Positions 8,479 through 63,948 are shown, numbered from the stretch's first letter. The stretch is 64,000 nt of DNA from Verrucomicrobiota bacterium (GCA_018648805.1 JABGQM010000010.1:25486-89485); one strand, 5' to 3'. The notes: generated from the sequence alone by a model not told the origin. Translations and numbers: made by a program.

Positions 8479-9603
8479 ATGAAAGCTTTGCGATACAAAG
8501 GCCTTTGCAGAAGAGCGCTTCTTCTGGTGGCCGTGATGGTGGCTATGGGGGGGCTGCCGCTGTTGGGGTTGTGGCTGGCCAGGCGCCCGGTCAGGCCTTG
8601 TCTTGCGTTTCCGCCGCTGACACAGTTTGTTGAGCACGCCCCCTTCGCCTGGCCGCTCTTCGGGATACTGGCGCTCTTGGCCCTCCTGACGGGCGGGGCT
8701 ATCGTGCTCAGTCTGCTCTGTGCGCGGCCGGTCGAACGCGAGCGCACGCCGTCGCGCTTCCCGCTCTGGGGGTGGGGCGGGCTGATTTTGACTGGTCTGG
8801 CGTGGGGGCTGGCGTGGAGTCGTATGGCATGGTTTGCGCCCTTCCAGGTCACTATCTTCACCCCGCTCTGGCTGGGGTACATCGTGGTGATCAACGGACT
8901 TATGGTGCGGCGCACGGGGCGTTGCCTGATGACCACGCGGCCGGGGCTGTTCCTGGGGCTGTTCCCCATGAGCGCGCTCTTCTGGTGGTTCTTCGAGTAC
9001 CTCAACCGCTTCGCCCAGAACTGGTACTACCCACCTATTCTCGAACTGGGGCCGCTGGCCTACTTTCTCATGGCCACGCTGCCGTTTGCCACGGTGCTGC
9101 CGGCGGTGCTGAGCACAGCCGACCTGCTGGGCTCACTGCCGCGTCTGGATGATGGGGCCTTGCATGGGCCGGCCCTGCGCTTGCGCCACCCGCGCCGGGC
9201 CGCGGTCGTGCTGCTGGTCTTCGCGGCGATGGGTCTGGTCGGGCTGGGGGTCTGGCCCAACCTGCTCTTTCCGCTGCTCTGGCTCTCGCCGCTGGTGCTC
9301 GTGCTTGGATTGGCGGTCCTGTGTGGCCAGACCACGGTCCTGAGCCCCGTCTCGTGGGGGGACTGGACGTTGCCGGTCCGTTTTGCGCTGGCCGCCCTGA
9401 TATGTGGTTTCTTCTGGGAGTTCTGGAACATCCGCAGTGCGGCCCAGTGGGTCTACTCGGTGCCCTATGTGCATCGCTTCCTCATCTTTGAGATGCCCCT
9501 GTTGGGGTATCTCGGCTATCTGCCCTTCGGGCTCGAATGTGTGGCGATTGTCGACTTCCTGCTGGGTGGGCGCTTCGGTCAAGGTGAGGCCCCCTTGGCT
9601 TGA
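8479..9603 (+). CDS. Polytopic membrane protein, unknown function
   Basis: 374 aa with about 9-10 hydrophobic helices and aromatic-rich motifs (FWWFFEYLNRFAQNWYY, FWEFWNIRSAAQWVY). The last ~9 codons and the stop lie inside repeat element F1. Confidence 0.6.
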   Translation: MKALRYKGLCRRALLLVAVMVAMGGLPLLGLWLARRPVRPCLAFPPLTQFVEHAPFAWPLFGILALLALLTGGAIVLSLLCARPVERERTPSRFPLWGWGGLILTGLAWGLAWSRMAWFAPFQVTIFTPLWLGYIVVINGLMVRRTGRCLMTTRPGLFLGLFPMSALFWWFFEYLNRFAQNWYYPPILELGPLAYFLMATLPFATVLPAVLSTADLLGSLPRLDDGALHGPALRLRHPRRAAVVLLVFAAMGLVGLGVWPNLLFPLLWLSPLVLVLGLAVLCGQTTVLSPVSWGDWTLPVRFALAALICGFFWEFWNIRSAAQWVYSVPYVHRFLIFEMPLLGYLGYLPFGLECVAIVDFLLGGRFGQGEAPLA

Positions 9604-9709
9604 GAGCTTGGGATACCAAGCTCAAAGGCCTGCGGGACCTCACCTTGACCTCCGCTTGGGTTAGGGTGACCTCCGCTTGGGTTAGGGTGACCTCTGCTTG
9701 GGTTAGGGT
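9571..9709 (+). repeat. F-family element, copy F1: long hairpin plus 3 x 21-bp tandem repeat
   Basis: Outer stem GGTCAAGGTGAGGCCC (9577-9592) pairs with GGGACCTCACCTTGACC (9634-9650). Apical stem AGCTTGG (9605-9611), loop GATA, CCAAGCT (9616-9622). Tandem GACCTCCGCTTGGGTTAGGGT at 9647, 9668 and 9689. Confidence 0.85.
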
Positions 9710-9776
9710 GGTGTCCGCTCTCGTCAACCGAAATGGACAGGAAAACGGGGGAGAAGGTCGAGATAAGGAGGGTGAC

Positions 9777-11264
9777 ATGCGCAGTGCAACGTTCAGAACG
9801 AGAGTGATGCTGGGTGTGAATGCCGTGGTGACGGTGGGGCTGGCGTTCTACCTGTTCCTCGGGCCGGGCTGTTTGGTTGTGTCCGACCTGGCCGATCCGG
9901 CCATTCGTTCGACCGGCATACCGCGTGCGGCCTGGCGGTCGCACCGCTACCTGGCACCGCGCTATGCCCGCTGGGCCCGGGCGCGTGTGGTTTCAGGAGC
10001 GGCCGGCGAGCTGGATCTGTTTGACGTGCCGTCGACGGAGTGGCCGATCTTCGGGTCGGTCTACTATCTCTGGGCCACGGAGAATCTGCAGGCGGCTTGG
10101 GAGCGCGACGAGGGTCGCTCGGACAGCGCGCCGGCGGTGTACGCGGCCGAGGCGATTGAGGCCTGCGTCGAGTTGATCATGGATCCGGTGCATCACACCT
10201 GGGTGCGCACGCACTGGGGTGATGGCTACATGCATCGTGAGAATGCGTTCTTCCGCTCGCTCATCATTGCGGGGCTGACCAGCTATGAGAACCTGACCGG
10301 CAACGCACGCTACCGTGAAGTCCTGCTCGATCAGACCACGACCTTGGCGCAGGATCTCGACCGTTCGCGCCTTGGCGTGCTGGACGACTATCCCGGCGAA
10401 TGCTACCCGATCGATATCCTGGCCGTGTGGGCCTGCATCAAGCGGGCCGATCAGCTATTGGGGACCGATCACAGCGCAGAGATAGAGCGGGCCCGTCGCG
10501 CGTTCGAGGGGGAGATGCTTGATCCGCTGGGCCTGCCGCCTTTCTGCATGGACTCACACACCGGCGAACACCTCGGTCCGTCACGCGGCGTGGGAAATTC
10601 CTATGTCCTGATCTTCCTTCCCGAGCTCTGGCCGGACCTCGCGCCGGAGTGGTATGCGCGCTACGAGGCCCATTTCTGGCAGAAGCACTGCTGGGCCGAA
10701 GGATTCCGTGAGTTTCCGCCCTCTGAGCCGGACCGCGAATGGAGCTATGACGTGGATGCGGGGCCGATTATGGCGGGCTTCAGTCCGGCAGCCAACGCCT
10801 TCGGCGTGGCGGCGGCCAAGGTGAATGGCCGCCTCGACCACGCCTATACGCTCAGCACACAGGTGTTGGCCGCTTGCTGGCCGCTGCCCGGGGGCGGGAT
10901 GCTGGGGACGCGTCTTCTGTCGGATCCCGAGCATGCCCCTTACCTGGGGGAGACCTGTATGCTCTTCTTCCTGTCGCACGTGACCCCGGCGGGCACCACG
11001 CTGACGACGGGCGGTGGGGCGCCCCCCTTCGTGGCGTGCCTCCTGGGGGGCCAATTCGGCGTGGGCGTGCTGATCCTGCTGTCCACCTGGCGGACATGGC
11101 GGCGCAAGCGGGCCAAACCCCTGCCTGCTGAAGGGGTGCAATACACGGTTTGGTTGCTCCTCCTCGCTACGGGGGGGTGTCTGCTGCTGATCGGGCACGC
11201 TTCGATAGGGTTCATCACTGTTCTACTCGGGCAGCTGTTGCCACGTGTGGCAAGGGCTCAGTAG
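9777..11264 (+). CDS. Membrane-anchored protein, unknown function
   Basis: ATG 9777 preceded by AAGGAGGG. One N-terminal TM helix, a large soluble central region, and C-terminal TM helices. The longer ORF from 9600 only translates the repeat. Confidence 0.55.
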   Translation: MRSATFRTRVMLGVNAVVTVGLAFYLFLGPGCLVVSDLADPAIRSTGIPRAAWRSHRYLAPRYARWARARVVSGAAGELDLFDVPSTEWPIFGSVYYLWATENLQAAWERDEGRSDSAPAVYAAEAIEACVELIMDPVHHTWVRTHWGDGYMHRENAFFRSLIIAGLTSYENLTGNARYREVLLDQTTTLAQDLDRSRLGVLDDYPGECYPIDILAVWACIKRADQLLGTDHSAEIERARRAFEGEMLDPLGLPPFCMDSHTGEHLGPSRGVGNSYVLIFLPELWPDLAPEWYARYEAHFWQKHCWAEGFREFPPSEPDREWSYDVDAGPIMAGFSPAANAFGVAAAKVNGRLDHAYTLSTQVLAACWPLPGGGMLGTRLLSDPEHAPYLGETCMLFFLSHVTPAGTTLTTGGGAPPFVACLLGGQFGVGVLILLSTWRTWRRKRAKPLPAEGVQYTVWLLLLATGGCLLLIGHASIGFITVLLGQLLPRVARAQ

Positions 11265-11373
11265 GAGGGGTTTTTCACTTTCTCCTATCGCTGCAAGGGG
11301 GGGTGTGCTATGACATGCGGCATGCTTTCTAGACGTTGTCCGAAAAGGGTCTAGACACAGAGAAGAAGAGAAG

Positions 11374-11515
11374 ATCCAACAACCAACAAGGAATATCCAA
11401 TATCCAAGGAAAGACCTCGCGCGATACACACGGGAATTGCGGAAGGTTGCGTGAAGTCCGACAAAGGATCCCCCCCTTGGAAATTGGATTTGAGTGTTGG
11501 CTGTTGGATATTGGG
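11374..11515. repeat. A-family hairpin, copy A1
   Basis: Left arm ATCCAACAACCAACAAGGAATATCCAATATCCAAGG. Right arm CCTTGGAAATTGGATTTGAGTGTTGGCTGTTGGATATTGGG. Loop about 66 nt. Confidence 0.75.
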
Positions 11516-12545: not shown

Positions 12546-12546
12546 G

Positions 12547-14795: not shown

Positions 14796-14986
14796 CGCTC
14801 CGGCCCGAGGGAAGGCCACTTGGCTCGACCGGTTCGGAATACCGAACCGCTAAGGCCTGCGTGACCTTCCCCCGGGCCTCCGCTTGGGTTATGGTGACCT
14901 CCGCTTGGGCTGGGTTGACCTTGGCTTGAAGGCGGTTTCTTCCGTTGGGCGTTGGATGTTGGATGTTGGTTGTTGGACGTTGATGT
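14796..14986 (+). repeat. F-family element, copy F3, plus a 7-bp GTTGGNN array
   Basis: Outer stem GGGAAGGCCAC (14809-14819) pairs with GTGACCTTCCC (14861-14871). Apical stem CGGTTCGG (14830-37), loop AATA, CCGAACCG (14842-49). Degenerate 21-mers at 14875, 14896 and 14917. GTTGGNN x ~6 at 14944-14986. Confidence 0.8.
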
Positions 14987-14994
14987 TTTGGTAG

Positions 14995-19552: not shown

Positions 19553-19570
19553 TCTGATGTCTATGAGACG

Positions 19571-20395: not shown

Positions 20396-22174
20396 ATGTC
20401 AAATGCCAGTACAGAGTATCTTGCCGGTCTGCTTGAGCGCATGGAGCTGTTCTCTCCCGCGCAGGTGGTTGAGTTGATCGAGGCGGCACGTGAATCGGAG
20501 ATGAGTGTCACCGAAATCGTGGCGGCCGAGGGCTATGCCCCCGAAGAGGCCTTCCTCGAAAAGCTGGCTGAGGTGATGCGGCTGCCCTATGTGCGCCTCA
20601 ACACACGCGAGATCGAGCAGGACGTGCTTGACCGGCTGCCGACCAAGGCGGTATTCCAGTACCGTGTGATCCCGGTTGAGTTCGAGAATGGTGCCCTGCT
20701 GGTCGCCGCCAATGATCCCCTCGATGCGGGGCTGGTGGATAGTCTGCGCCTGGCCGCCGGGGGGCGGGTCAAGTTGGCTTTGAGTCCCTCGACCGATATC
20801 GCCAAGGCCGCCAAGCGCTTCTACGGGGTCGGCGCCGAGACGGTCGACCGCATGATGCAGGATGATCGCTTTGAGGTGGCCGTGGATGACTCCCTGGCCA
20901 AGGTCGATGTGACCGAACTCGACCAGGAGGCCTCGATCGTCAAGTTCGTCAACCAGATCATCTGGGAAGCGGTGCAGCAGGGCTCGACGGATATTCATAT
21001 GGAGCCGATGGAGGAACAACTCCGTATTCGCTACCGGGTTGACGGCGTCTTGCATCAGGCCCCCGTCCCGGCCCGCCTGATCCGGTTCCAAGCGGCCATT
21101 ATCTCCCGTATCAAGGTGATGGCCAACCTCGATATCGCCGAGAAACGTCTGCCCATGGATGGGCGCATCGGGTTGCGCGTGCAGGGCGAAGACATTGATA
21201 TCCGCGTCTCGACCATGCCGACCGTCTACGGCGAGAGCGTCAGCCTGCGCTTGTTGCAGCGCAAAGGGGAGTTCATCAGCCTGGAAGATCTCGGGATGAT
21301 GCCGCGCGACCAGGAGCTTGTTGAGCGTTGCATTCACCGGCCCAACGGGATCGTATTGGTCACGGGGCCCACAGGGTCCGGTAAATCGACCACGCTCTAC
21401 GCCTTCCTCCACGAGATCAACAAGATCGACCGGCGTATCCTGACTGCCGAGGAACCGATTGAGTACGAGATGGGCGGCATCAACCAGGTGCTGGTCCGTC
21501 CAGACATCGGCTTGACCTTCGCCCGCACGCTGCGCTCCTTCCTGCGCCAGGACCCCGATATCATTATGGTGGGGGAAATCCGGGATGCGGAAACCGCGGA
21601 AATCGCGATTCAGGCGTCGCTGACCGGTCACTTGGTCTTCAGTACGCTGCATACAAACGATGCGGCCGGCTCGTTCACGCGCCTGCTTGATATGGGGGTT
21701 GAACCGTTTCTCGTGGCCTCGGCCGTGGCCGGGGTGGTGGCGCAGCGTCTCGTGCGCCGGCTCTGTCCCGACTGTCGGCGGGCCCAGACACCCGACATGG
21801 CGCGCCTCGAGCGCATAGCGTTCCCCTTGGATCAGTTGGCCAGCCATACGGTCTATGAACCGAGTACGTGCGAGGCGTGTCGCATGACAGGGTTCCGTGG
21901 GCGCGGCGGTATTTTCGAAGTGCTGCAGGTCTCCGAGGCCATTGAATCGCTCGTGGTCGCCCGGAGCTCGTCCCACGATATCCGGCAGCAGGCCACGAGC
22001 GAGGGCATGATGACCTTGCGTGACGATGGTTGGCAGAAAGTTCTGAAGGGGTTCACGACCATTGAGGAAGTGCTCCGTGTGACGGAGGAGAACCTGGTGG
22101 AAGAACCGACTGACGAACAATCGAAGGACGAACATTCGAACAATCGAACTACGAATGGGGAAGTGGTTACGTGA
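20396..22174 (+). CDS. gspE: Type II secretion / type IV pilus assembly ATPase (GspE/PilB family)
   Basis: N-terminal T2SSE_N-like domain, Walker A GPTGSGKST, IMVGEIRD, His box, CPDC...CEAC tetracysteine. The last ~20 codons are encoded by the repeat B1 arm. Confidence 0.9.
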   Translation: MSNASTEYLAGLLERMELFSPAQVVELIEAARESEMSVTEIVAAEGYAPEEAFLEKLAEVMRLPYVRLNTREIEQDVLDRLPTKAVFQYRVIPVEFENGALLVAANDPLDAGLVDSLRLAAGGRVKLALSPSTDIAKAAKRFYGVGAETVDRMMQDDRFEVAVDDSLAKVDVTELDQEASIVKFVNQIIWEAVQQGSTDIHMEPMEEQLRIRYRVDGVLHQAPVPARLIRFQAAIISRIKVMANLDIAEKRLPMDGRIGLRVQGEDIDIRVSTMPTVYGESVSLRLLQRKGEFISLEDLGMMPRDQELVERCIHRPNGIVLVTGPTGSGKSTTLYAFLHEINKIDRRILTAEEPIEYEMGGINQVLVRPDIGLTFARTLRSFLRQDPDIIMVGEIRDAETAEIAIQASLTGHLVFSTLHTNDAAGSFTRLLDMGVEPFLVASAVAGVVAQRLVRRLCPDCRRAQTPDMARLERIAFPLDQLASHTVYEPSTCEACRMTGFRGRGGIFEVLQVSEAIESLVVARSSSHDIRQQATSEGMMTLRDDGWQKVLKGFTTIEEVLRVTEENLVEEPTDEQSKDEHSNNRTTNGEVVT

Positions 22175-22274
22175 TCCATAAAACAGAGTGGAGTCTGAGC
22201 CGGCCGGAAGAGGGAAGCAGTGGTCCCCTCGTTCGTCGTTCGGCTGTTCGGCTGTTCGGCTGTTCGATTGTTCC
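22103..22274. repeat. B-family hairpin, copy B1
   Basis: Left arm of CGAAC words (GACGAACAATCGAAGGACGAACATTCGAACAATCGAACTACGAATGGGG). Right arm CCCCTCGTTCGTCGTTCGGCTGTTCGGCTGTTCGGCTGTTCGATTGTTCC. Confidence 0.8.
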
Positions 22275-22281
22275 ATAAGCT

Positions 22282-23520: not shown

Positions 23521-23760
23521 CTCCGGTCAGGGGCGCTCCGGTCAGGGCGAGGGGTTCTCGGCTGGAGAGCTTGGAATACCAAGCTCAAAGGCCTGCGAGG
23601 CGCTCCGGCCAAGGTAAGGCCCCCTTGGCTGGAGAGCTTGGAATACCAAGCTCAAAGGCCTGCGGGGACCTCACCTTGGCCTACGCTTGGGTTAGGTGGA
23701 CCTCCGCTTGGGTTAGGGTGGACCTCCGCTTGGGGTGGGTAGATCGGCTTGGGTTGGGTG
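23521..23760 (+). repeat. F-family elements F2a and F2b plus about 4 x 21-bp tandem repeat
   Basis: Two cores CT(C/T)GGCTGGAGAGCTTGGAATACCAAGCTCAAAGGCCTGCG at 23557-23597 and 23625-23664. F2b outer stem GGCCAAGGTAAGGCCCC (23608-24) pairs with GGGACCTCACCTTGGCC (23665-81). 21-mers from 23678 to 23760. Confidence 0.85.
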
Positions 23761-23800
23761 GTGTTTGGTGTTTGGTGATGTGCTAATAAGGGAGGGTGTT

Positions 23801-24190: not shown

Positions 24191-24204
24191 TCTACAGGAA
24201 GACT

Positions 24205-24335
24205 CAATATCCAATATCCAACAAGGAATGTCCAATGTCCAAGTGGGTGAGGATGGTGAATGGTGGGCCAATCGGCATGTCATTCGCAAAGCTCCCGCCC
24301 TTGGGAGTTGGGAGTTCCTTGTTGGATATTGGATG
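24205..24335. repeat. A-family hairpin, copy A2
   Basis: Left arm CAATATCCAATATCCAACAAGGAATGTCCAATGTCCAAG. Right arm CTTGGGAGTTGGGAGTTCCTTGTTGGATATTGGATG. The loop contains GTGAATGG...GTCATTCGC. Confidence 0.8.
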
Positions 24336-25002
24336 TTCAGATGCCGCGCAGTCGAGGCCCATCCATCGATCTGGCGCTACGGGTCGCTATCGACAGCGTC
24401 AATCAGGGTTCACCCTGATCGAGGTGTTGCTGGTGGTGGCGATTATAGGGGTCATGCTGACGATCATGATGCCCCAGATGATGAGCTCGATGCGTGAGCA
24501 CCAGCTGCGTGGCGCCACGCGCGTGGTGATCTCGGCCGGCCGGCACGCCATGAGTTTGGCCGTACTTTCGCAGCGCCGCATGAACGTGGTCTTCGATCTT
24601 GACGAGACGGTGCTGACGATCCGCGCGGCGGACGCGCCATCCACTATCGATGCCGACGGTCTCGGCGAGGCCGACTCCCCCTTGGACGCGGTTGTGGCCG
24701 ACGCATGGGGTGGGGGCGCTGCGGCTGAGATGGAGGCCCTCCCGGCGGATGATGATGGCGCCTACGAGGGGGCGGTGGCCATTGTCGACGAAGAGGTGGT
24801 GCACCGCTTGGAGGGGGTCGCTTTCAGCTTTATCGAGGTTGAGGGTGAAGACGGCTACCGTGCCGAGAGCGGTAAGCATACGATCATCTACTATACGAAT
24901 GGCCGCTGCACCCCGTACACGATTGGCTTCGAGGATGACGACGGCGCCAGCGCCACGATCGAGGTGGATGCCCTCGCCTCGGCGCGGGTACTGGAGAGGT
25001 AG
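24277..25002 (+). CDS. Minor pseudopilin (GspH-like); start uncertain
   Basis: Prepilin N-terminus QSG|FTLIEVLLVVAIIGVML. The frame is open through repeat A2. Candidate starts are ATG 24277 or TTG 24301/24319/24322, all inside the repeat. Confidence 0.65.
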   Translation: MSFAKLPPLGVGSSLLDIGCSDAAQSRPIHRSGATGRYRQRQSGFTLIEVLLVVAIIGVMLTIMMPQMMSSMREHQLRGATRVVISAGRHAMSLAVLSQRRMNVVFDLDETVLTIRAADAPSTIDADGLGEADSPLDAVVADAWGGGAAAEMEALPADDDGAYEGAVAIVDEEVVHRLEGVAFSFIEVEGEDGYRAESGKHTIIYYTNGRCTPYTIGFEDDDGASATIEVDALASARVLER

Positions 25003-34542: not shown

Positions 34543-34677
34543 CAATGTCCAACAGCCAACAAGGAATATCCAATGGGCAAGTGAGCGTGAACAGTGAATG
34601 GATCGCGACAGGACGGGTCATTCGCTAGTCGCACGCACTTCGGCGTTGGGAGTTCCTTGTTGGATATTGGATATTGG
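34543..34677. repeat. A-family hairpin, copy A3
   Basis: Left arm CAATGTCCAACAGCCAACAAGGAATATCCAATGGGC. Right arm GCGTTGGGAGTTCCTTGTTGGATATTGGATATTGG. The loop shares GTGAG, GTGAATGG and GTCATTCGC with A2. Confidence 0.8.
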
Positions 34678-35978: not shown

Positions 35979-35989
35979 AGAGGAATGGA

Positions 35990-36145
35990 GGACGAACAGC
36001 CGAACATTCGAACAGCCGAACTACGAACATGGGAACAGGTGCTTGTGCGTTTCACCCCGCGTGCTTTCCACGGCGAACCTGACATCAGTCGGGGATTTCC
36101 CACTTCGTAGTTCGAATGTTCGGCTGTTCGACTGTTCGATTGTTC
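35990..36145. repeat. B-family hairpin, copy B2
   Basis: Left arm GGACGAACAGCCGAACATTCGAACAGCCGAACTACGAACATGGGAA. Right arm TTCCCACTTCGTAGTTCGAATGTTCGGCTGTTCGACTGTTCGATTGTTC. Confidence 0.8.
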
Positions 36146-36156
36146 AATTGTTTGCC

Positions 36157-42189: not shown

Positions 42190-42873
42190 CTACTGTAGCC
42201 AGTCGAGCAGGCCCCCGACAAGGTCTGTGCAGACCGTCGCGCTACTGATCAGGCTGCGTTTGAACAGACCTACGTAGCGCTCCAGCGTGGCCGGCGTGAC
42301 GGCGACACACCAGAGGCCGATGCCGATGACATTCAGGCTGTAGATAAACGTATAGGAAAAGAGGTGGCCGCAGGCGCGGATATCGCTCTGGTGCTGCAGC
42401 AGCGTGCTGATCGTGAAGGTGAAGTGAAAGCCCCATGTGAACCCGATCATGCCCATCCACCAGAGATGGTACTGCTCCACGGGATAAAAGAGACCTAGAG
42501 CGCCGAAGAGGCCGATGGTCAGCATGGTGTAGAGCGGGAAGAAGTAGGGTGCCAGCGTGATGAGAAAGTTGGTTTTCGAGAGTGTGACACTGCCCTTGTC
42601 CTCCGCCACACGAAGGTTGGAGACGCGCGCGCCCATCATCCAGCCCCACAGGGCGTGGGTCAGCTCGTGGGCCAGAACGTAGGTGCGCACCGGGCGCGGC
42701 AGCACAAAGTAGAGGATCAGCCAGAAGCTGAATCCACCCACCAGCCACCACGTATCCGGCGGCACGCTCCCCGGCTGTAGGGCACGCAGGAGTCCGTAAA
42801 GCGCCATGCTCGACGCGGCACAGACCGGGATCAGCAAGAGTCCCGTCAGGAACCTGACAATGCGAATCAACAT
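42190..42873 (-). CDS. Polytopic membrane protein with an HExxH motif (putative zinc metallopeptidase, DUF3267/M50B-like)
   Basis: Start MLIRIVRF (ATG 42871-73). HELTHALWGWMMG sits next to TM helices. No SD; the ATG lies about 4 nt from the B3 arm. Confidence 0.55.
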   Translation of the reverse strand: MLIRIVRFLTGLLLIPVCAASSMALYGLLRALQPGSVPPDTWWLVGGFSFWLILYFVLPRPVRTYVLAHELTHALWGWMMGARVSNLRVAEDKGSVTLSKTNFLITLAPYFFPLYTMLTIGLFGALGLFYPVEQYHLWWMGMIGFTWGFHFTFTISTLLQHQSDIRACGHLFSYTFIYSLNVIGIGLWCVAVTPATLERYVGLFKRSLISSATVCTDLVGGLLDWLQ

Positions 42874-42876
42874 GGG

Positions 42877-43023
42877 CAACCATCGAACATATGAACAGCC
42901 GAACATTCGAACCATCGAACATTCGAACTACGAAGTAAGCACGTTACACGTGCAAGCATGCTTGCCGCAGGTTTCCCTGTTCGTAGTTCGGCTGTTCGAT
43001 TGTTCGGCTTGTTCGACCGTTCC
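42877..43023. repeat. B-family hairpin, copy B3
   Basis: Left arm CAACCATCGAACATATGAACAGCCGAACATTCGAACCATCGAACATTCGAACTACGAA. Right arm TTCGTAGTTCGGCTGTTCGATTGTTCGGCTTGTTCGACCGTTCC. The loop holds the palindromes GCACGT..ACGTGC and GCAAGCATGCTTGC. Confidence 0.8.
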
Positions 43024-49230: not shown

Positions 49231-49265
49231 TGCTCGTTACTCCCTTGTTCCAGCCAAAGCAGTTT

Positions 49266-49351
49266 CACCATGAAGGACATGAAGAGCATGAAGATGAAAT
49301 CGATTCGCCGCAGGCGAGTCGACCTTCACTTCCTTCATGTTCTTCATGGTG
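49266..49351. repeat. D-family hairpin (CATGAAG words)
   Basis: CACCATGAAGGACATGAAGAGCATGAAGATGAAATCGATTCGCC, loop GCAG, then GGCGAGTCGACCTTCACTTCCTTCATGTTCTTCATGGTG. The gltX stop (49344-46) lies in the right arm. Confidence 0.85.
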
Positions 49352-50942
49352 AGCTTTGCTCTTCCCTGTCGCACAGGTTTGCGATCGCATAATCCAACCG
49401 CGTCAGGACGCGCTCGCGTCCCAGCAGCACCATCGTTTCGTACAGGCCGGCGCCAATGGGCGTGGCCGTGACCGCCACGCGGATCGGCTGGTTCAGTTTG
49501 CCTTCCTTGATCTCATTTTCGCGTTCGATCTCGTGAATCAGGGATTCAACGGCGTTTTCCTCAAAATCGACATCGGCAAGGCGTTGCCGCAGTGCCGTCA
49601 GCATCTGCACCACACCCTCTTTCTGAAGGAACTTCCGCACGCCCTTGGGGTCGTACTCCAGTTCGTCCGAGAAGAAATACTTCCATACCGCCACGTCCGG
49701 ATAGAGCTGCGTGCGCGACTGCAGCAGAGCGCAGACCTCTCTGAAGAGTTTCTCATCCACCTCACGGCCCCAGTCGTGTTTTGCCAGCTCCGTGCGTGCC
49801 GACGCCATGAAGGTCTCGAGCGGAAGCTCGGCCAGGTAGAGACCGTTCATGTGGGCCAGTTTCTTGAGATCCATCTGCGAGGGGGCGCTGCGCACCCGCT
49901 CGAGCGTGAAGATGGAGACCAAGTCCTCGCGTGAGAGCTTCTCGCGGTCGTCGCCGGGCGCCCAGCCGAGCAGCGTCAGGTAGTTGAAGAGCGCATCCGG
50001 ATCAAACCCGCGTGCCTTGAAATCGCCCACGTAGGCATCCCCGTCACGCTTGCTGTAGGGCTTGCCCTGCGCGTTCACAATCATCGGCAGATGGGCGTAG
50101 ACCGGCGGTGTGTGGCCCAGTGCGGCAAAAAGCAGGACATGGCGGAAGGTGTTCTCGACGTGGTCGTCGCCGCGCACGATGTGCGTGATTTCCTGGACCG
50201 CATCGTCGCAGACATTGGCCAGGTGGAAAACCGGCGCCCCGCTGCTGCGCACGATCACCAGGTCCTTGATCCCGTCCAGCGGCTTGGTCATGCGGCCCTT
50301 GATCAGGTCCTCAAACACCACCTGGCGCCGCTCGAACTCCATCCGCACGACGTGCTCTACTGTGAACTCTGCTTTGCCGGCCAGCACGGTATCCGGCTGT
50401 GCCCCGAGATCGTAGAGGCAATGATCGTCTGCATCGAAGAGGCGCAGCCCCTTGAAGCCTGCCAGGCAGCCGCTCTCCTCGACCGGCTTTCCTTTTTTGC
50501 TCACCATCGCGTATTGCACGCCGGCATGGCTGATTGTGACCGGTACGTCCGGATGCACCGTTAGGTGGGCCGGACCGACCGGCTCGTAGACGTCCGCCAT
50601 CCAGGGCATCCTGAAACAGACCGCCGCGCCCTTGCCCGCCTCACTCGGCAGCGCGTAGGCCGCGCCGGAGGCCTCCAGCTCACCCGCCGCGGCCAGATGC
50701 GCTGTCCGCCGCTGCGACTGGTGCATCACCTCGCCGTCGATATCCAGTTTGAGCCACGCCATCGCCTCGCGCAGCGTCTCCTTGGCCTCATCGGTTGACC
50801 GTTCCAGATCGGTATCCTCGACCCGCAGCAGGAATTCCCCGCCGCGATGCCGCGCAAAAAGCCAATTGAAAATAGCCGCCCGGATATTCCCGATATGGAC
50901 ATGTCCTGTCGGACTCGGTGCAAATCTAACTCGTACTGTCAT
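49344..50942 (-). CDS. gltX: Glutamyl-tRNA synthetase
   Basis: Start MTVRVRFAPSPTGHVHIGNIR (HIGH). KPYSKRDG is KMSKS-like. Confidence 0.92.
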   Translation of the reverse strand: MTVRVRFAPSPTGHVHIGNIRAAIFNWLFARHRGGEFLLRVEDTDLERSTDEAKETLREAMAWLKLDIDGEVMHQSQRRTAHLAAAGELEASGAAYALPSEAGKGAAVCFRMPWMADVYEPVGPAHLTVHPDVPVTISHAGVQYAMVSKKGKPVEESGCLAGFKGLRLFDADDHCLYDLGAQPDTVLAGKAEFTVEHVVRMEFERRQVVFEDLIKGRMTKPLDGIKDLVIVRSSGAPVFHLANVCDDAVQEITHIVRGDDHVENTFRHVLLFAALGHTPPVYAHLPMIVNAQGKPYSKRDGDAYVGDFKARGFDPDALFNYLTLLGWAPGDDREKLSREDLVSIFTLERVRSAPSQMDLKKLAHMNGLYLAELPLETFMASARTELAKHDWGREVDEKLFREVCALLQSRTQLYPDVAVWKYFFSDELEYDPKGVRKFLQKEGVVQMLTALRQRLADVDFEENAVESLIHEIERENEIKEGKLNQPIRVAVTATPIGAGLYETMVLLGRERVLTRLDYAIANLCDREEQSSP

Positions 50943-55430: not shown

Positions 55431-56525
55431 ATGGGAGATGAAAAAATGAGCGGTCAACGCGATGGAATGAACTATGTGCCTGAGAGTGGCGCGACTGAAG
55501 CGGTGGTAGCGCCAGGCGACTTTGTCTTTGCGGCCTCCCATTTCGATCATGGTCATATCTATGGGCAGATCGGTGGATTGACGGGGGCGGGTGGCAGGCT
55601 GAAATATATCTACGAGCCGGATGCTTCGCGGCACAACAGTGTGTTGGAACAGAATCCGGGCTGCACGGTGGTCGAGCATTTCGAGCAGATCCTCGAGGAT
55701 GACGAGGTCAAGCTGGTCACCTCGGCGGCGGTGCCGTGTGATCGCTGTGCGGTCGGCTTGCAGGTGATGGATGCGGGCAAGGACTACCTGACCGACAAGT
55801 CGCCGTTTACCACGCTCGACCAGCTTGAGCAGGCCAAACAGAAAGTCGCGCAGAGCGGCCAGAAGTACATGGTCTGTTACAGTGAACGCCTGCTCAACGA
55901 ATCGGGCTACCATACCGGCGAACTGATCCGACAGGGCGCGATCGGCAAGGTGCTGAGTGTGATCAACCTGGCCCCGCACAACCTGGCGGCACACACACGC
56001 CCGGCGTGGTTCTTCGACAAGGCCAGGTATGGCGGCATCCTGACGGATATCGGTTCACACCAGTTTGAGCAATTTCTGACGTATACCGGGGCCACGGACG
56101 GCGTGGTGAACTTTGCGCGTGTGGCCAACCTGGGCAACCCGGAGTATCCGGGTCTCGAGGATTTCGGGGAAGCATCGCTGACGATGGATACGGGCGCCTC
56201 CTGTTACTGTCGACTCGACTGGTGGAATCCGGCCGGCCTGCGTAGCTGGGGAGACGGACGCACCTTCATCGTGGGCACCAAAGGCTCGATTGAGATCCGC
56301 AAGTATATCGACGTGGCCCGCGAGACGGGCGGGAATCGGATCTTCCTGGTGGACGGCGAGACCGAGCAGGAGATCGCGTGCAGCGGCAAGGTGGGCTTCC
56401 CCTATTTCGGGCAGCTGATCCTGGATGTGCTCAATCGCACCGAGAACGCCATGACGCAGGCGCACGCCTTCAAGGCCGCTGAGCTGTCGATGCGGGCGCA
56501 GGCGGCGGGGGAAGGGCAGGGATAG
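55431..56525 (+). CDS. Gfo/Idh/MocA-family oxidoreductase
   Basis: Overall GFO_IDH_MocA-like sequence (FVFAASHFDHGHIYGQIGGL..., VMDAGKDYLTDKSP, VCYSERL). Start at ATG 55431 or 55446. Confidence 0.7.
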   Translation: MGDEKMSGQRDGMNYVPESGATEAVVAPGDFVFAASHFDHGHIYGQIGGLTGAGGRLKYIYEPDASRHNSVLEQNPGCTVVEHFEQILEDDEVKLVTSAAVPCDRCAVGLQVMDAGKDYLTDKSPFTTLDQLEQAKQKVAQSGQKYMVCYSERLLNESGYHTGELIRQGAIGKVLSVINLAPHNLAAHTRPAWFFDKARYGGILTDIGSHQFEQFLTYTGATDGVVNFARVANLGNPEYPGLEDFGEASLTMDTGASCYCRLDWWNPAGLRSWGDGRTFIVGTKGSIEIRKYIDVARETGGNRIFLVDGETEQEIACSGKVGFPYFGQLILDVLNRTENAMTQAHAFKAAELSMRAQAAGEGQG

Positions 56526-56527
56526 AC

Positions 56528-56556
56528 CACGGATGGCACGGATGAACACGGATGGG
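56528..56556 (+). repeat. E-family word array E1 (CACGGATGN x 3)
   Basis: CACGGATGG CACGGATGAA CACGGATGGG, starting 3 nt after the stop codon. No complementary arm found nearby. Confidence 0.7.
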
Positions 56557-56689
56557 ATGCAACGGGTACTGTCAAAAGTTCTATAAAAAGTATGAAGGAT
56601 GGGAATCGGTGAACGATAGCGGCGACCCTCCGTCGCGCTTCGCGCTATGGAGGGCAGGCTGAGAGCGGATAACGAGGAACTCTTCGTCC

Positions 56690-56892
56690 CACACTTAAAC
56701 GTACACTTAACCCAAACCCTTACTCGGATACCCTTAACCGACCCGCTTACTCGTTGATGGCCAATTGCTTATCGACCTCACGTTGTGCCCACAACAGTCA
56801 CGGTTCAAGGGCCATGGTTCGCAGGCGGTTGAAGTGAGGCGGTTAAGGGTATCCGAGTAAGGGTGGCGAGTAAGAAAGCGATTAAGTGTAGG
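56690..56892. repeat. C-family hairpin, copy C1
   Basis: Perfect 24-nt pairing of CCCTTACTCGGATACCCTTAACCG (56717-40) with CGGTTAAGGGTATCCGAGTAAGGG (56840-63). Flanking CACTTAA/TTAAGTG words. Loop about 100 nt. Confidence 0.8.
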
Positions 56893-57002
56893 AAAACGGA
56901 GGGGAACGGTCAATATGCCGCAACCCCTTGACAAACAGAAGGTTAAGAATGTCAGGGGCCGACAACTCTTGACAGTACCAAACGGCGACAAAGGAGACTG
57001 CA

Positions 57003-58497: not shown

Positions 58498-58551
58498 GAA
58501 GGAAAGGCCCTGCAGGATATATGCAGCCTGTACCTGGGGCTGTCGAATCAG

Positions 58552-58719
58552 TTCACGACAAAGTTCTCGAATCAGTTGAGGTCGAGCCAGTTCTCGACAA
58601 AGTTCACGGTGTAGAGGACATGCGACTACACAAACTGAATCGTGCTCTTTGTCGCGAACTATACCGAAACTAACTATCGCGTGAACTTTGTCGTGTACTG
58701 AAACGATTTAGATCAGCTG
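58552..58719. repeat. G-family hairpin G1 (12-nt words ...CGACAAAGTT / CGAATCAGTT)
   Basis: Left arm GTCGAATCAGTTCACGACAAAGTTCTCGAATCAGTTGAGGTCGAGCCAGTTCTCGACAAAGTTCACGG. Apical stem GTGTAG..CTACAC. The right arm carries the complementary words (AACTTTGTCGTG, CTTTGTCGCG, ACTGAATCG). Confidence 0.75.
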
Positions 58720-58827
58720 TCAGCCTGCCCGGAACTTTCAACGCACGGTTTCGGAACTTTCGAACGCACCACGACAGGAGAAGGAAGAGGACTTGCGAGG
58801 CCGCCTGGTTGTGGTATTCTCGGCTTC

Positions 58828-61305
58828 ATGAAGGTGGTGTTTGCTGAAAAGCCGTCGGTGGGGCGTGATATTGCGCGCTGCATCGGCAACGGGAAGAAAT
58901 GCGACGGGTGGATCGAAGGCAAGGGCTGGGCGGTCACGTGGGCGTTTGGCCACTTGGTTCAGCTCCAGAATCCCGAGGCCTATGATCCGGCCCTGAAACG
59001 GTGGTCGCTCGAGACGCTCCCGATTGTGCCGGAGCCTTTTCAGCTCGAACCCCGTTATGGCGACGGGGTGGCCGCACAGCTTCAGCGGGTGGTCGATCTC
59101 TTCAAGCAAGCCGACGAGCTGATCTGCGCGACGGATGCGGGGCGCGAAGGCGAGCTGATCTTCCGTTATGTTGTGACCTGGGCCGGCTGCGAGGATACGC
59201 CGGTGCGGCGCCTCTGGCTCAGCTCGATGACCGATGATGCGATCAAGCGCGGCTTCAAGGAGATGCAGAACGGTCAGGCCTATGACAACCTCTACCGGGC
59301 GGCGCGCTGTCGGAGCGAGGCCGACTGGATCGTGGGCATGAACGGCACCCGCTTCTTCTCGGTGCGCTACGGTCGGCGCAAGGAGCTGTGGAGCGTAGGA
59401 CGGGTGCAGACGCCCGTGCTGGCGATGATCGTGGGACGCGACCGGACGATTGAGGACTTCCGCTCCAGCGATTACCACGAGCTGCACACGCTCTACCGCA
59501 AGGTAGACTTCAAGCACGAGCGAGGCAAGATCGAGGAAGCGCCTGAGGCCCAGCGTCTGCTGGACAAGGTGACGGGGCCGGAACTGGTCATCACTGACAT
59601 TCAGCAGCAGCGCAAGAGCTTTCGTCCGCCCCTGCTCTACGACCTGACCGAGCTGCAGCGCGACATGAACAAGCGCTGGGGGTTGACCGCCAAGCAGACG
59701 CTCGCCGCGACGCAGACACTCTATGAACGTAAACACCTGACTTACCCGCGTACGGATAGTCGTTACCTGGATTCAGACACGGTCAAGACGGTGCCGCAGG
59801 TGCTGGAGCGGTTGCGCGGCCTGCAACCGGCTGCCATCGCCGGCCTCGACCTGGCCAACCTGCCTGTGACGGCACGGATTGTCAACGACGCCAAGGTGAA
59901 CGATCATCACGCCATCATCCCGACCACCCAACCACCTGCGCATCCCTTTGGCGGCGCTGAGGGCAAGGTCTACGAGGCCGTCCTGATGCGCTTCATTGCG
60001 GCGTTCTATCCGCCCTGCGTCAAGAGCGTTACACGCGTGCGGGCCATGGTGGAGGATGAGCCCTTCCGCGCCTCGGGCAGTACGGTCATCACGCCGGGCT
60101 GGCAGGCGCTCTTCCCGAAGATGCTGGAGAAGGGCGAGCCGAAGAAGAAGCGCAAGAAGGCGGCGGCTGGCGAGGAGAGCGATGCGGACAGCGACGCCGA
60201 TCAGGAACAGGCGCTGCCGGCGTTTGTGAAGGGCGAGCGCGGTCCTCATGCTCCCTTTCTGAAACAGCTCAAGACCAAGCCACCGCACGCTTTCACGGAG
60301 GCCTCACTCCTGCAGATGATGGAGACGGCGGGCAAGCTGGTCGATGACGAGGAGCTGCAGGATGCGCTCAAGGAGAAGGGCATCGGGACGCCTGCTACGC
60401 GGGCCGCGATCATCGAGACGCTCATCCAGCGCGGCTATATCATTCGCCGTCGCAAGAGTCTGGTCAGCACCGACCACGGACGTGAGCTAATCGACATTGT
60501 GGCCGACGAGCAACTGAAGTCGCCCGAGTTGACGGGCGAGTGGGAGGCGCAACTCAAGCGCATTGAGCGCGGCGAATATGATGGCGAGGCCTTCATGGAG
60601 CAGGTCGTGGCACACACGCGCCAGATTATCAGCCAGACCAAAGAGGTGAAACGGGTGCGACGGTTCGGCCCCTGCCCCAAGTGCGAGGGCTCGATTATTG
60701 AGGGCAAGCGTGGCTACGGTTGCAGTCGCTGGAAAGGTGGATGCGATTTTGTGATTTGGAAGGAGCAGTTCGGAACGCGCTTGCGCGAGAGCGATCTGCA
60801 CGCACTGCTGGAACAACGCAAGACGGTTGACCCCATCCTACTGGAGGTGGACAAAGCGGTCCGGCGCTATGGGCGGCTGGTGTTGAAAGCGGACAACAGC
60901 GTGGGCTGGACGCCCATCGGGGCCCGCGAGAAGGTGCGTGAGCGCGCCATGGTGGGACAGTGCCCGCTTTGCGGCAGCGATGTAATTGCAAACGACAAGC
61001 AGTATGGCTGCGTACGCTGGCGCGAAGGCTGTCCTTTTGTGGTGTGGCGGACGATGAGTCAGAGGGCGCTGCCGGTGGCCATGGTGCGCACGCTGCTGAA
61101 AGAGGGCATAACGCCCTTCATCCAGAAGTTCAAGCGGCGCGACGGCAAGCGTTTTGACGCCCGTCTAAAGCTGGATGAGGCGGGCAAAGTGGGCTTCGAC
61201 TTCACCCCGAACGAGAAGAAGACAGCCACGGATAGTGACTCCGAAGAGGCGCCTGTGCAGGGGGCGGGGAAGAAGGGGCCCGAATCGACTAAGCAGGTCG
61301 GTTAA
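58828..61305 (+). CDS. topB: DNA topoisomerase III
   Basis: Toprim N-terminus MKVVFAEKPSVGRD, DAGREGE, catalytic Tyr region LTYPRTDSRYL, two C-terminal C4 zinc ribbons (CPKCEG...CSRWKGGC; CPLCGS...CVRWREGC). Confidence 0.9.
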   Translation: MKVVFAEKPSVGRDIARCIGNGKKCDGWIEGKGWAVTWAFGHLVQLQNPEAYDPALKRWSLETLPIVPEPFQLEPRYGDGVAAQLQRVVDLFKQADELICATDAGREGELIFRYVVTWAGCEDTPVRRLWLSSMTDDAIKRGFKEMQNGQAYDNLYRAARCRSEADWIVGMNGTRFFSVRYGRRKELWSVGRVQTPVLAMIVGRDRTIEDFRSSDYHELHTLYRKVDFKHERGKIEEAPEAQRLLDKVTGPELVITDIQQQRKSFRPPLLYDLTELQRDMNKRWGLTAKQTLAATQTLYERKHLTYPRTDSRYLDSDTVKTVPQVLERLRGLQPAAIAGLDLANLPVTARIVNDAKVNDHHAIIPTTQPPAHPFGGAEGKVYEAVLMRFIAAFYPPCVKSVTRVRAMVEDEPFRASGSTVITPGWQALFPKMLEKGEPKKKRKKAAAGEESDADSDADQEQALPAFVKGERGPHAPFLKQLKTKPPHAFTEASLLQMMETAGKLVDDEELQDALKEKGIGTPATRAAIIETLIQRGYIIRRRKSLVSTDHGRELIDIVADEQLKSPELTGEWEAQLKRIERGEYDGEAFMEQVVAHTRQIISQTKEVKRVRRFGPCPKCEGSIIEGKRGYGCSRWKGGCDFVIWKEQFGTRLRESDLHALLEQRKTVDPILLEVDKAVRRYGRLVLKADNSVGWTPIGAREKVRERAMVGQCPLCGSDVIANDKQYGCVRWREGCPFVVWRTMSQRALPVAMVRTLLKEGITPFIQKFKRRDGKRFDARLKLDEAGKVGFDFTPNEKKTATDSDSEEAPVQGAGKKGPESTKQVG

Positions 61306-61414
61306 GTGTATCCGGTTAAGAGTGGCGACAAAGTGTGCGAGTAAGTGTAGGCACCTCTATACACTTAACCGACACCCTTACTCGGATACCCTTAACCGAC
61401 ACCCTTAACCGACC
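61296..61414. repeat. C-family hairpin, copy C2 (between convergent genes)
   Basis: Left arm GGTCGGTTAAGTGTATCCGGTTAAGAGTGGCGACAAAGTGTGCGAGTAAGTGTAG. Right arm TATACACTTAACCGACACCCTTACTCGGATACCCTTAACCGACACCCTTAACCGACC. The topB stop TAA (61303-05) lies in the left arm. Confidence 0.8.
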
Positions 61415-61493
61415 TGTTTCGTCGGATCCCTGGTCAGGCCAGTCTCGAACTTACAGAACTACCTGCACACGACAGGCTGCTCCCCTGCCCTGC

Positions 61494-62618: not shown

Positions 62619-62787
62619 CCGGTTAAGTCAGGCGATTAAGCGTATCCAAGTAAGTGTTGCGGTTAAGAGTGCGACGACGTGTACGCTTAAGTGTGTGCGC
62701 TGCGCTCTCCATACACTTTCTCGGACACTTAACCGCACTCTTAAACGCCACCCTTACTCGGATACACTTAACCGACCAACTTACTCG
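62619..62787. repeat. C-family hairpin, copy C3
   Basis: The left arm is built of GGTTAAG / AGTAAG / GTATCC words and the right arm of CTTAACC / CTTACTCGGATAC words (for example GCGGTTAAGAGTGCG against CGCACTCTTAAACGC). Confidence 0.8.
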
Positions 62788-62816
62788 ACTTCCTCCGGAC
62801 CCATAATTGGGTGTGG

Positions 62817-63722
62817 CTAGGATTCCCGGCGGCGGCGGGCGGATTCGAGGAAGGCGGTGTATTGGGCGCCGGCGTGGTAGGAGGAGCGGACGAGGGGGCC
62901 GGATTCGCAGTAGGCAAAGCCGCGGGCGAGGGCTTCCTGTTTCAGATCGTCAAAGGCCTCGGGGGTCCAGTAGGTGACAACGGGGGCGTGGGCGCGGGTG
63001 GGCTGGAGGTATTGGCCGAGGTTGACGACGTCGACATCGATGCGGCGCAGGTCATCCAGCGAGGTGAGAATTTCGTCACGCGTTTCGCCGAGGCCGAGCA
63101 TCAGGCTGGACTTTGTGACGGCGGCGGGATCGAGTTGTTTGACGATCTCGAGGTAGCTGAGGGATCGATCGTAGTCGGAGCGCGAGCGGATCTGCTGGGT
63201 CAGCCGGCGCACGGTCTCGATGTTGTGCGAGTTGATGGCGGGGGCGCTGGCGGTGACGATGGCGATGGAGTCGCGTTTCCCCATGAGGTCGGAGGAGAGC
63301 ACTTCGACGGAGCAGTCGGGGGCGGTGGCGTGGATGGCATCCACGGTGTCGGCCAGGATACGGGCACCGCCATCGGGCAGGTCGTCGCGGGTGACCATGG
63401 TGATGACGACATGCGCCAGCTTCATGGTGGCAACGGAGTCGGCCACGCGCTGGGGTTCGTCGGGATCGGGTGGCGCGGGACGTCCGGTCTGGACGGCGCA
63501 GAACCGGCAGCAGCGGGTGCAGACCTCACCCAGAATCATGAAAGTGGCGGTTTTGTGTTTGCCCCAGCACTCGTGGATGTTGGGGCACATGGCCTCTTCG
63601 CAGACGGTGTGCAGGTTCTGGCCTTCGATCAGCTTTTTGACCTCGCCGAAGGATTCGGTGTGTGAGAGGCGCACGCGTAGCCAGTCAGGCTTGCGAAGCG
63701 GGGTGTTATCGGCTGTTGTCAT
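62817..63722 (-). CDS. lipA: Lipoyl synthase
   Basis: CEEAMCPNIHECW auxiliary cluster and CTRCCRFCAV radical-SAM motif. Confidence 0.93.
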   Translation of the reverse strand: MTTADNTPLRKPDWLRVRLSHTESFGEVKKLIEGQNLHTVCEEAMCPNIHECWGKHKTATFMILGEVCTRCCRFCAVQTGRPAPPDPDEPQRVADSVATMKLAHVVITMVTRDDLPDGGARILADTVDAIHATAPDCSVEVLSSDLMGKRDSIAIVTASAPAINSHNIETVRRLTQQIRSRSDYDRSLSYLEIVKQLDPAAVTKSSLMLGLGETRDEILTSLDDLRRIDVDVVNLGQYLQPTRAHAPVVTYWTPEAFDDLKQEALARGFAYCESGPLVRSSYHAGAQYTAFLESARRRRES

Positions 63723-63745
63723 AGCAAGGCTCGGGGAGGGTTAAC

Positions 63746-63773
63746 CACGGAATACACGGAAGGCACGGAAAGG
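63746..63773 (+). repeat. E-family word array E2 (CACGGAANN x 3)
   Basis: CACGGAATA CACGGAAGG CACGGAAAGG. Related to E1. Confidence 0.65.
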
Positions 63774-63856
63774 GAGCGGGAGGGACTCGGGTTCGGGGAG
63801 GGAGGTCTCGCGCAAAGGCGCCAAGAACGCCAAGGGGAACTCGGCTTCTGCTGATT

Positions 63857-63948
63857 GACAGAATAATTGGTGACAGAATGATTTTCCCGTCGTCCGCGGC
63901 TCGGGTTCTGCGGGGGATGGGCAAAATCATTTGGGGCAAAATCATTTT
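63857..63948. repeat. I-family hairpin (AATGATTTT words)
   Basis: GACAGAATAATTGGTGACAGAATGATTTTCCC (63857-88) against GGGCAAAATCATTTGGGGCAAAATCATTTT (63919-48). Confidence 0.7.

Follow-up and report, generated by a model that had tools for sequence, protein, structure and literature searches.

The stretch of DNA analyzed here, referred to as the window, comprises 64,000 nucleotides from a Verrucomicrobiota bacterium (GCA_018648805.1, JABGQM010000010.1:25486-89485), and many of its intergenic spacers carry a long hairpin, often with arms built of short words repeated in tandem. These hairpins are probably derivatives of selfish cassettes of the type known as rRNA intervening sequences (IVSs), which carry a PF05635 gene; they lack the open reading frame (ORF), resemble miniature inverted-repeat transposable elements (MITEs), and would be tolerated between cistrons. 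Elsewhere, the arms of three of the hairpin families (A, B, and C) serve as terminal inverted repeats (TIRs) of gene-carrying cassettes of 440–900 bp. The remaining families (D, E, G, I, and F) are probably derivatives of IVS-type cassettes as well, judging by their architecture.

Long hairpins in the intergenic spacers

A scan for inverted repeats (IRs) by einverted-like dynamic programming (match 3, mismatch −4, gap −12, score at least 45, span below 400) placed 14 long IRs in the window, all 14 in spacers and none in coding DNA. They lie at 9577-9650, 11371-11512, 22115-22273, 23567-23653, 24203-24340, 34543-34676, 35993-36138, 39820-39888, 42893-43022, 49265-49352, 56687-56893, 58543-58706, 61286-61424, and 62624-62783. 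Five block shuffles gave 2, 0, 0, 0, and 0 IRs (a mean of about 0.4), and a separate repeat search of the window listed the same inverted pairs. The complementary termini form a long, stable stem of 17–74 aligned pairs; when folded as RNA, the window hairpins have minimum free energy z-scores of −3.5 to −10 against dinucleotide shuffles.

To count placement, we used a curated gene map, spacers of at least 80 nt, and a cut-off equal to the maximum of 150 coding controls (an IR score of 36). A higher score was reached in 15 of 23 non-divergent spacers and in none of the four divergent ones, where the maximum is 32; the probability of finding none in four is 0.028, and with n = 4 this contrast is weakly powered. 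An initial annotation of the same DNA, which had already described the long IRs, gave 16 of 20 non-divergent and 0 of 3 divergent spacers. Our recount is close to these figures and agrees that divergent spacers are avoided, with the reservation that one of the 15 filled spacers (39820-39888) holds a plain perfect hairpin that is not of the word type. The annotation also had the hairpins interrupting operons (gspE–gspF–gspG–gspH, argJ–argB, and gltX–glnS), and the gene identities assigned by Pfam bear this out. It had described the words as AT-richer than their surroundings, and the element-carrying spacers are indeed AT-richer, with a GC content of 0.47–0.60 (most 0.50–0.54), and the word-type hairpins alone 0.46–0.55, against about 0.62 for the window.

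Its description of each arm as a tandem array of words stands for some families only. Coding DNA has a 95th percentile of 0.59 for periodicity, which we called present at 0.66 or above. Words recur every 8 nt in B (0.72–0.88), every 7 nt in A (0.69), and every 12–14 nt in C (0.66), and a one-armed array at 14943 reaches 0.84; the periodicity of D, G, F, and I is not above the coding background. The B octamers (CGAACAGC, CGAACATT, and CGAACAAT) succeed one another at a spacing of 8 in 151 of 180 steps, with three to six words per arm.

The same arms bracket PF05635 genes

In one fetched locus (L228), two B arms lie 430 nt apart around a 128-aa ORF that matches PF05635, the 23S rRNA intervening sequence protein family (E = 1.3e-14), and TIGR02436, a four helix bundle protein. 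B arms also bracket PF05635 genes in L263, L241, L259, and the Cytophagales locus L222 (E = 3e-40). Since these B loci had been selected with a probe, 80 further loci were fetched by protein similarity alone, as the best 80 of more than 565 hits, from many phyla. The 220 nt upstream of each gene were compared with the reverse complement of the 220 nt downstream, and a gene was counted as bracketed at an IR score of at least 47. This was the case for 62 of the 75 genes with both flanks, with a median score of about 74. Most mismatched-pair controls scored 20–35, and some scored high because different loci share the same arm vocabulary.

Many of the bracketing arms read AATATCCAATATCCAACAAGGAATATCCAAT, which is family A of the window, and the A arms of the window are 92–100% identical over 31–39 nt to arms next to PF05635 genes. 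The arm at 11371 shows 94–100% identity over 26–36 nt to such arms, the one at 24203 matches cassette arms at 31/31 and 37/39 positions, and the one at 34543 matches an Akkermansiaceae cassette arm (L284) at 34/35. For family B, the arm of the argJ–argB element is identical (39/39) to an arm of the PF05635 cassette in L263. The PF05635-flanking arms matched by family A come from metagenome-assembled genomes (MAGs) labeled Bacteroidetes, Victivallales, Lentisphaerae, Deltaproteobacteria, Armatimonadota, and Cloacimonadota. When the A arms of 18 cassettes were aligned over 38 nt (five heptads), anchored on AACA[ACG]GGAAT, their mean pairwise identity was 0.80, against 0.69 for the ORFs that they flank.

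Family C provides a series of intermediates. A C-arm probe found at least 120 stretches in metagenomes, and 80 C loci were examined. C arms enclose the gene for a 249-aa protein with a tandem double PF05635 domain (E = 1.9e-25), a cargo that a custom hidden Markov model of one PF05635 subfamily missed and that was found by reading the sequence and confirmed with Pfam. The 80 loci hold seven full genes, two genes cut by contig ends, and about five short remnants; in L414, only the last (C-terminal) 53 codons are left between the arms. This series is as expected if internal deletion yields ORF-less hairpins. The vocabularies that had been taken as unrelated in the initial annotation thus have, in A, B, and C, one cargo gene family in common.

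Two observations concern the layout of cassettes. In the Cytophagales MAG locus L222 (540-1200), a T-rich B-like arm is followed by a PF05635 ORF on the − strand and a second T-rich arm in direct orientation, after which come a 50-nt loop and the complementary arm; gene-carrying and ORF-less units are thus nested or abutting. In four loci labeled Cloacimonadota, Armatimonadota, and Tenebribacter (L270, L278, L291, and L298), similar sequence is found just outside the A-type arms (ggtaagttgaaaa before and cagatttt after them), so that either the element is longer than the scored arms or it has a preferred target.

Gain and loss of hairpins at orthologous junctions

From its GspE relatives, the window is placed in the Kiritimatiellia, within the Planctomycetes–Verrucomicrobia–Chlamydiae (PVC) group, and the closest species-level genomes (L001, L002, and L003) have 87–88% GspE identity. 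We compared the junctions of the mur-fts-gsp cluster in the four genomes; the L003 sequence starts beyond the first two of them. Empty junctions measure −13 to +25 nt and inserts 90–280 nt, and each genome has its own subset of filled junctions. The murCB–ddl spacer measures 204, 15, and −13 nt in the window, L001, and L002, respectively, and the insert at 14802..14987 has no counterpart in the two relatives. The ftsA–ftsZ spacer (11, 1, and 94 nt) is filled in L002 and not in the window. Between gspE and gspF, the spacers of the window, L001, L002, and L003 measure 188, 213, 6, and 153 nt, with a B hairpin in the window and L001, none in L002, and an element of CATCAAC words in L003. The gspG–gspH spacer (233, 68, 67, and 78 nt) is filled in the window only, the A element at 24203 being absent from L001-L003, and the gspH–gspI spacer (7, 94, 130, and 204 nt) is filled in L002 and not in the window. 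More widely, the surroundings of gspE in MAGs of Lentisphaerae, Verrucomicrobiota, and Phycisphaerae often contain hairpins whose arms consist of other short words. The hairpins are therefore insertions gained and lost between cistrons, not conserved gene-specific signals, and this argues against a conserved 3′-end or processing signal.

The mismatches within the arms bear on the level at which the repeats are kept. Read in the sense transcript, the 62 cassette arm pairs contain 92 G:U and 89 A:C mismatches and 240 transversions, and the window hairpins 31 G:U vs. 20 A:C; an excess of G:U over A:C is seen in neither set. The lack of a wobble bias, together with the sequence conservation of the A arm, points to arms that are kept as sequence-specific repeats at the DNA level, in the manner of transposon ends, and not as an RNA element in which only the structure counts.

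Both results speak to the possibility that the hairpins are host RNA signals that evolved in place, such as terminators without a U tract, REP-like 3′ stabilizers, or RNase processing sites that determine how strongly cistrons are expressed relative to one another. Signals of this kind would fit hairpins that occur only in co-directional or convergent spacers, have very stable stems, and abut stop and start codons, as well as the B element downstream of nrdJ, which sits at the same site in three species (the window, L231, and L254), with very different arm and loop lengths. However, the hairpins come and go at the orthologous junctions of an operon that is both essential and conserved, and they lack a U tract, although the genome has canonical terminators (19520-19553). 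They also show no excess of G:U over A:C, match no Rfam family, and have arms that bracket a gene cassette in unrelated phyla. Consequently, we regard an origin as host RNA signals as unlikely.

Dispersal of whole elements

A probe from the B right arm matched about 22 loci in the MAG of L001, five to six in each of two other PVC MAGs, and single loci in others, with chance-level scatter elsewhere. The B consensus is GAAGTA-(CGAACANN)3-CGAACTACGAAGTG, a loop of 45–110 nt, and the complement. Among the approximately 22 copies in one MAG there are loop subfamilies, which indicates that whole elements were copied. Likewise, a complete copy of the A element at 11371, loop included, is present with 87% identity at an unrelated metagenomic locus (L346).

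The window also has a 380-nt repeat unit (56566..56945) that contains a C hairpin (56687-56893). It occurs in other contigs with 98.9–99.9% identity and different flanking genes: in L353, L398, L416, L463, and L465, the unit (56564-56945) joins a PLDc_2 gene to a sulfatase gene, or a GFO-oxidoreductase gene to another gene. Some contigs end exactly at the edge of the unit, and one begins exactly at 56946. The alternative joins stem either from recombination between copies or from assembly through the repeat, and either cause implies several near-identical copies. The window itself could be chimeric at this unit.

Such copies are difficult to reconcile with hairpins that are mutational by-products, grown de novo in unconstrained spacers by replication slippage and intrastrand template switching, with no transposition. 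This idea would accommodate the one-armed arrays (14943, 56515, 63746, and murCB–ddl of L001), arms that can be unequal (e.g., L003 gspE–gspF), the many vocabularies, and the fact that orthologous B elements differ mostly in word number. While slippage probably shapes the arms, it cannot explain dispersal: the 38-nt A arm is 80% conserved across phyla, above its cargo gene, whole elements with their loops are copied at unrelated loci, and 99%-identical units have different flanks. We therefore consider growth in place as the sole origin to be improbable, somewhat more so than host RNA signals.

Several other arrangements of B-type words were encountered. In L224 and L255, and in L211 and L245 (6510), what comes after a B left arm is an array of another vocabulary (TGAACCC or AACTCACAACTCAGAACTC words) in place of a B right arm, which suggests mixed-family or recombinant elements. 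Two Kiritimatiellia MAGs (L248 and L262) have a one-armed B array at matching positions upstream of an orthologous gene. Among Proteobacteria, tandem 16-mer arrays of the CGAACAGCCGAACA word pair occur in Halieaceae (L120 1698-1807, seven copies) and Burkholderiales (L118 4352-4397, three copies). A 14-mer genome scan with this B word pair was uninformative, with chance matches among the matches listed; the longer probe worked.

Proposed origin of the hairpins

The full form of the element has two long TIRs, each of three to six degenerate words of 7–13 nt, around a four-helix-bundle gene (PF05635/TIGR02436), whose product is related to Avd, a factor of diversity-generating retroelements. We propose that loss of the gene by internal deletion would reduce such a cassette to a hairpin, made of its two arms and a short loop that diverges fast. 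Copies persist only where neither an ORF nor a divergent promoter region is broken, which accounts for the placement bias. The elements would be co-transcribed with their operons, and the long double-stranded stems that they form would probably be cleaved by RNase III, as in rRNA IVSs; such a cut would make insertion into a transcription unit tolerable. Word number changes rapidly, presumably by slippage.

Several points weigh against a derivation from PF05635 cassettes. The window contains no PF05635 gene or remnant in a tblastn search with 82 four-helix-bundle proteins, and the tie to the gene holds only for A, B, and C, the other families being assigned by architecture alone. The words of D, E, G, I, and F had too few matches in all fetched loci to tie these families to any cargo. 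The C hairpin at 56687 has the arm order opposite to that of the gene-carrying C cassettes. The association of B with the gene was first seen in loci fetched with the B probe, the set fetched by protein similarity represents one PF05635 subfamily, and the taxonomic breadth of the cassettes rests on MAG labels. No target-site duplication was found at 48 cassette boundaries or between filled and empty junctions, the boundaries being accurate to a few nucleotides. Neither a transposase nor a defined target was found in the loci examined, where the long partners with the same arms encode only PF05635; to our knowledge, PF05635 proteins are not recombinases and have no transposase activity. The mobility of the elements is thus inferred from their distribution. 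Moreover, the nrdJ-downstream B element, retained in three species, could have a function. The conserved arms, the gene remnants, the turnover at orthologous junctions, and the dispersed copies nevertheless lead us to favor descent from PF05635 cassettes.

A more speculative extension is that the tandem words are binding registers for the protein of the cassette, such that arm and protein together make a self-sufficient unit that favors its own copying or retention. We think it rather unlikely. Copying might pass through a hairpin intermediate of DNA or RNA and use a polymerase or reverse transcriptase of the host, and ORF-less hairpins might be served in trans. There are five heptads in the A arm and three to six octamers in the B arm; four-helix-bundle proteins of the PF05635/Avd type assemble as pentamers. 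If true, such an arrangement would account for the spread of rRNA IVSs and the role of S23p, and would define a class of mobile elements without a transposase of known type.

Comparison with known systems

The closest likeness is to the IVSs of 23S rRNA. These are described as selfish elements with stem-forming TIRs, an S23p (PF05635) ORF in the loop, and RNase III cleavage in the stem; their distribution is sporadic, and their way of moving is given as unknown in a study of the Coxiella IVS (PMC4990558). The IVSs of Leptospira and Coxiella and the elements described here have in common TIRs that form a long stem, a PF05635 protein optionally encoded in the loop with ORF-less versions of both, a sporadic distribution that suggests horizontal spread, and a position within a transcription unit that is not destroyed by it (PMC4990558). 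In contrast to IVSs, which occupy rRNA helices (23S helices 9, 25, or 45), the elements here lie between protein-coding genes, are highly multi-copy, and have arms of tandem 7–13-nt words, with a specific 38-nt arm conserved across phyla. Conserved 23S motifs were found in none of 80 cassette loci, and Rfam at the gathering threshold detected only a tRNA-Leu, and no rRNA, in the window. Genes annotated as 23S_rRNA_IVP (PF05635) have been noted as insertions between cas genes (PMC3936711); PADLOC returned no match for the cargo proteins.

Like MITEs such as Correia/NEMIS, Chunjie, and Nezha, the hairpins are short, non-coding, and multi-copy, with TIRs and insertion polymorphism; they are probably internal-deletion derivatives of longer gene-carrying partners and can lie inside operons. 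They differ in that the long partner has no recognizable transposase, no target-site duplication is seen, and most of the element consists of the inverted repeats, which have a periodicity of their own.

Tandem word arrays have precedents of their own. Cyanobacterial short tandemly repeated repetitive (STRR) sequences are tandem arrays of heptamers. The TAACTGA repeats of Beggiatoaceae are heptamer arrays in direct orientation (PMC4679880). Both resemble our elements as intergenic tandem words of about 7 nt, of unknown function, often near start codons and across phyla; unlike these direct arrays, those described here are paired with a complementary array as a hairpin and bracket a specific gene family. 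Intrinsic terminators are likewise stable stem-loops downstream of genes, but the stems here are 35–74 nt long, imperfect, and AT-richer, with no T run after the stem, and the gsp, arg, and gltX-glnS operons contain them at positions that are not conserved between orthologs. In CRISPR arrays, unique spacers separate identical direct repeats, whereas the words here adjoin one another with no spacer and the arrays form inverted pairs.

Families of repetitive extragenic palindromic (REP) sequences, including REPINs and GTAG-REPs, consist of a palindromic unit with a REP-associated tyrosine transposase (RAYT) as partner, and GTAG-REPs have been reported in PVC bacteria (PMC3116915, PMC3733652). 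As with REPs, REPINs, and bacterial interspersed mosaic elements (BIMEs), our hairpins are extragenic, avoid divergent promoter regions, occur in head-to-head and tail-to-tail arrangements, and have no target-site duplication; unlike them, they have no palindromic unit of 20–40 nt and no unpaired GTAG/CGTC tag, and their gene is PF05635 instead of a RAYT. A REP/REPIN-type system mobilized by a RAYT (a Y1 HUH transposase) encoded elsewhere in the genome is the least probable of the alternatives considered: hairpin doublets with both arm orders, a GTAG in the B inner stem, the report of GTAG-REPs in PVC bacteria (PMC3733652), and the lack of target-site duplications would suit it, but the words (CGAACAGC, AATATCC, and CTTAACCGACACC) are not palindromic and so form no REP unit, the GTAG is internal, paired with CTAC, and confined to B (A and C have none), the full-length partners carry PF05635 and not a RAYT, and no RAYT was noticed in the 64-kb window or the fetched loci, which do not cover the whole genome.

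The initial annotation had recognized no known family in these hairpins. This remains correct with regard to REP/BIME, enterobacterial repetitive intergenic consensus (ERIC) sequences, CRISPR, and Rfam, which gave no match to an element in the window at the gathering threshold or in 20 cassette loci at E ≤ 0.1. It does not hold for the arms of A, B, and C, which are TIRs that bracket PF05635 genes elsewhere. In the part of the literature covered, we found no published description of PF05635 cassettes with word-built inverted ends or of ORF-less hairpin derivatives.

The rRNA IVSs and their S23p/PF05635 ORF have been called selfish for more than 30 years, with both the route of transfer and the function of the protein lacking. 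Should the proposed link hold, cassettes of this type are plentiful beyond rRNA in many phyla, with sequence-conserved, word-built ends and many ORF-less descendants that colonize operon junctions. This would also provide hundreds of natural insertion and deletion events, a 38-nt candidate recognition site, and a candidate protein–nucleic acid pair. There are practical consequences too: the hairpins break metagenome assemblies, with contigs that end or switch partners there, they lengthen ORFs spuriously (the GspE tail and gene calls that start in hairpins are examples), and they could pass for terminators or regulatory RNAs in PVC genomes.

Individual elements in the window

Three A hairpins are present. 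At 11371..11512, arms of CCAACAACCAACAAGGAATATCCAATATCC and its complement enclose a 65-nt loop. The one at 24203..24340, between gspG and gspH, has 60-nt arms and an 18-nt loop (z = −10.1), and the third (34543..34676) lies between a DEAD-box helicase gene and argJ. Public calls of gspH-like genes (255-aa and 226-aa versions, 24235 and 24322) begin inside the A hairpin at 24203, while homology is found only from about 24424; in such cases, hairpins mislead gene callers.

Family B also has three. The hairpin at 22100..22275 (gspE–gspF) is made of CGAACANN words, with an inner stem of CGAACTACGAA and TTCGTAGTTCG. The GspE ORF (20396-22174) has a 26-codon tail read from the left arm of this hairpin, and homologs stop near residue 566; the ancestral gspE stop codon, TAG in L001, reads TGG in the window, so that the ORF continues for 26 codons into the arm. 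A second B hairpin (35986..36161) takes up the spacer between argJ and argB and reaches the start codon of argB, and the third (42869..43022) separates nrdJ from an M50B-like downstream gene, both on the − strand.

The C hairpins differ in arm order. The one within the 380-nt unit is built of 13-nt words (CTTAACCGACACC and CTTACTCGGATAC) with the C-rich arm 5′. In the hairpin at 61286..61424, in the convergent spacer between topA and a TIM-barrel gene, the G-rich arm is 5′, a chirality like that of the gene-carrying C cassettes. The third (62624..62783), between lipA and the TIM-barrel gene (− strand), has 74-nt arms and a 12-nt loop. A Rho-binding (rut-like) role for C-rich 5′ arms was considered and dropped, given that both arm orders occur and that the arms of D and G are not C-rich.

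F-type elements combine hairpins with 21-nt repeats. At 9577..9710, a 74-nt hairpin (9577-9650, z = −9.6) is followed by a 21-nt array of 3.1 copies, and the element overlaps the 3′ end of the preceding ORF. The element at 14802..14987 consists of a hairpin with 21-mers (14802-14928) and the one-armed array of the heptamer CGTTGGA in 5.7 copies (14943-14987). Between gspF and gspG (23530..23777) there are two GAGCTTGGAATACCAAGCTC hairpins, a 21-mer array, and a TGGTGTT array.

The D hairpin (49265..49352; CATGAAGNN; z = −10.1) lies between gltX and glnS on the − strand, and the G hairpin (58543..58706; words CGACAAAGTT and CGAATCAGTT) lies between the sulfatase gene and topA; both were assigned by architecture. 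About 355 nt of the latter spacer, including the G hairpin, are enclosed by a 24-nt direct repeat, AGGAGAAGGAAGAGGACTTGCGAG (58396-58419 and 58777-58800), which may represent a long target duplication or have arisen by segmental duplication. E words form one-armed arrays at 56515..56555 (CACGGATNN, three copies) and 63746..63770 (CACGGAANN, 2.8 copies), and they are one-armed in gspH–gspI of L001 as well. The I hairpin (63857..63947; AATGATTTT and GGGCAAAATCATTTG) is the weakest case, with an IR score of 34 and a z-score of −3.5.

Setting of the window

The window has a GC content of about 62% and is 87% coding and 13% non-coding spacer. Its genes include a mur-fts cell-division cluster, a type II secretion (gsp) operon, arg genes, nrdJ, gltX-glnS, and topA. 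Several metagenome contigs and the MAG GCA_018692835.1 (contig JABHLB010000095) are 99.95–100% identical to it over up to 19 kb. The contigs that encode the exact GspF have no indels relative to the window, and hence no microevolution of the hairpins is visible in them.

Three further features lie in the window. A canonical intrinsic terminator (19520-19553, − strand) is found downstream of the gene at 19571-20209; it combines a GC-rich perfect stem with a T run and indicates that ordinary terminators are in use in this genome. A perfect GC-rich hairpin of at least 17 bp (39820-39888), not of the word type, directly follows tRNA-Leu(GAG) (39728-39815). Within the first large ORF, at 723-905, there is an in-frame tandem repeat of 42 nt in 4.4 copies with 85% matches.

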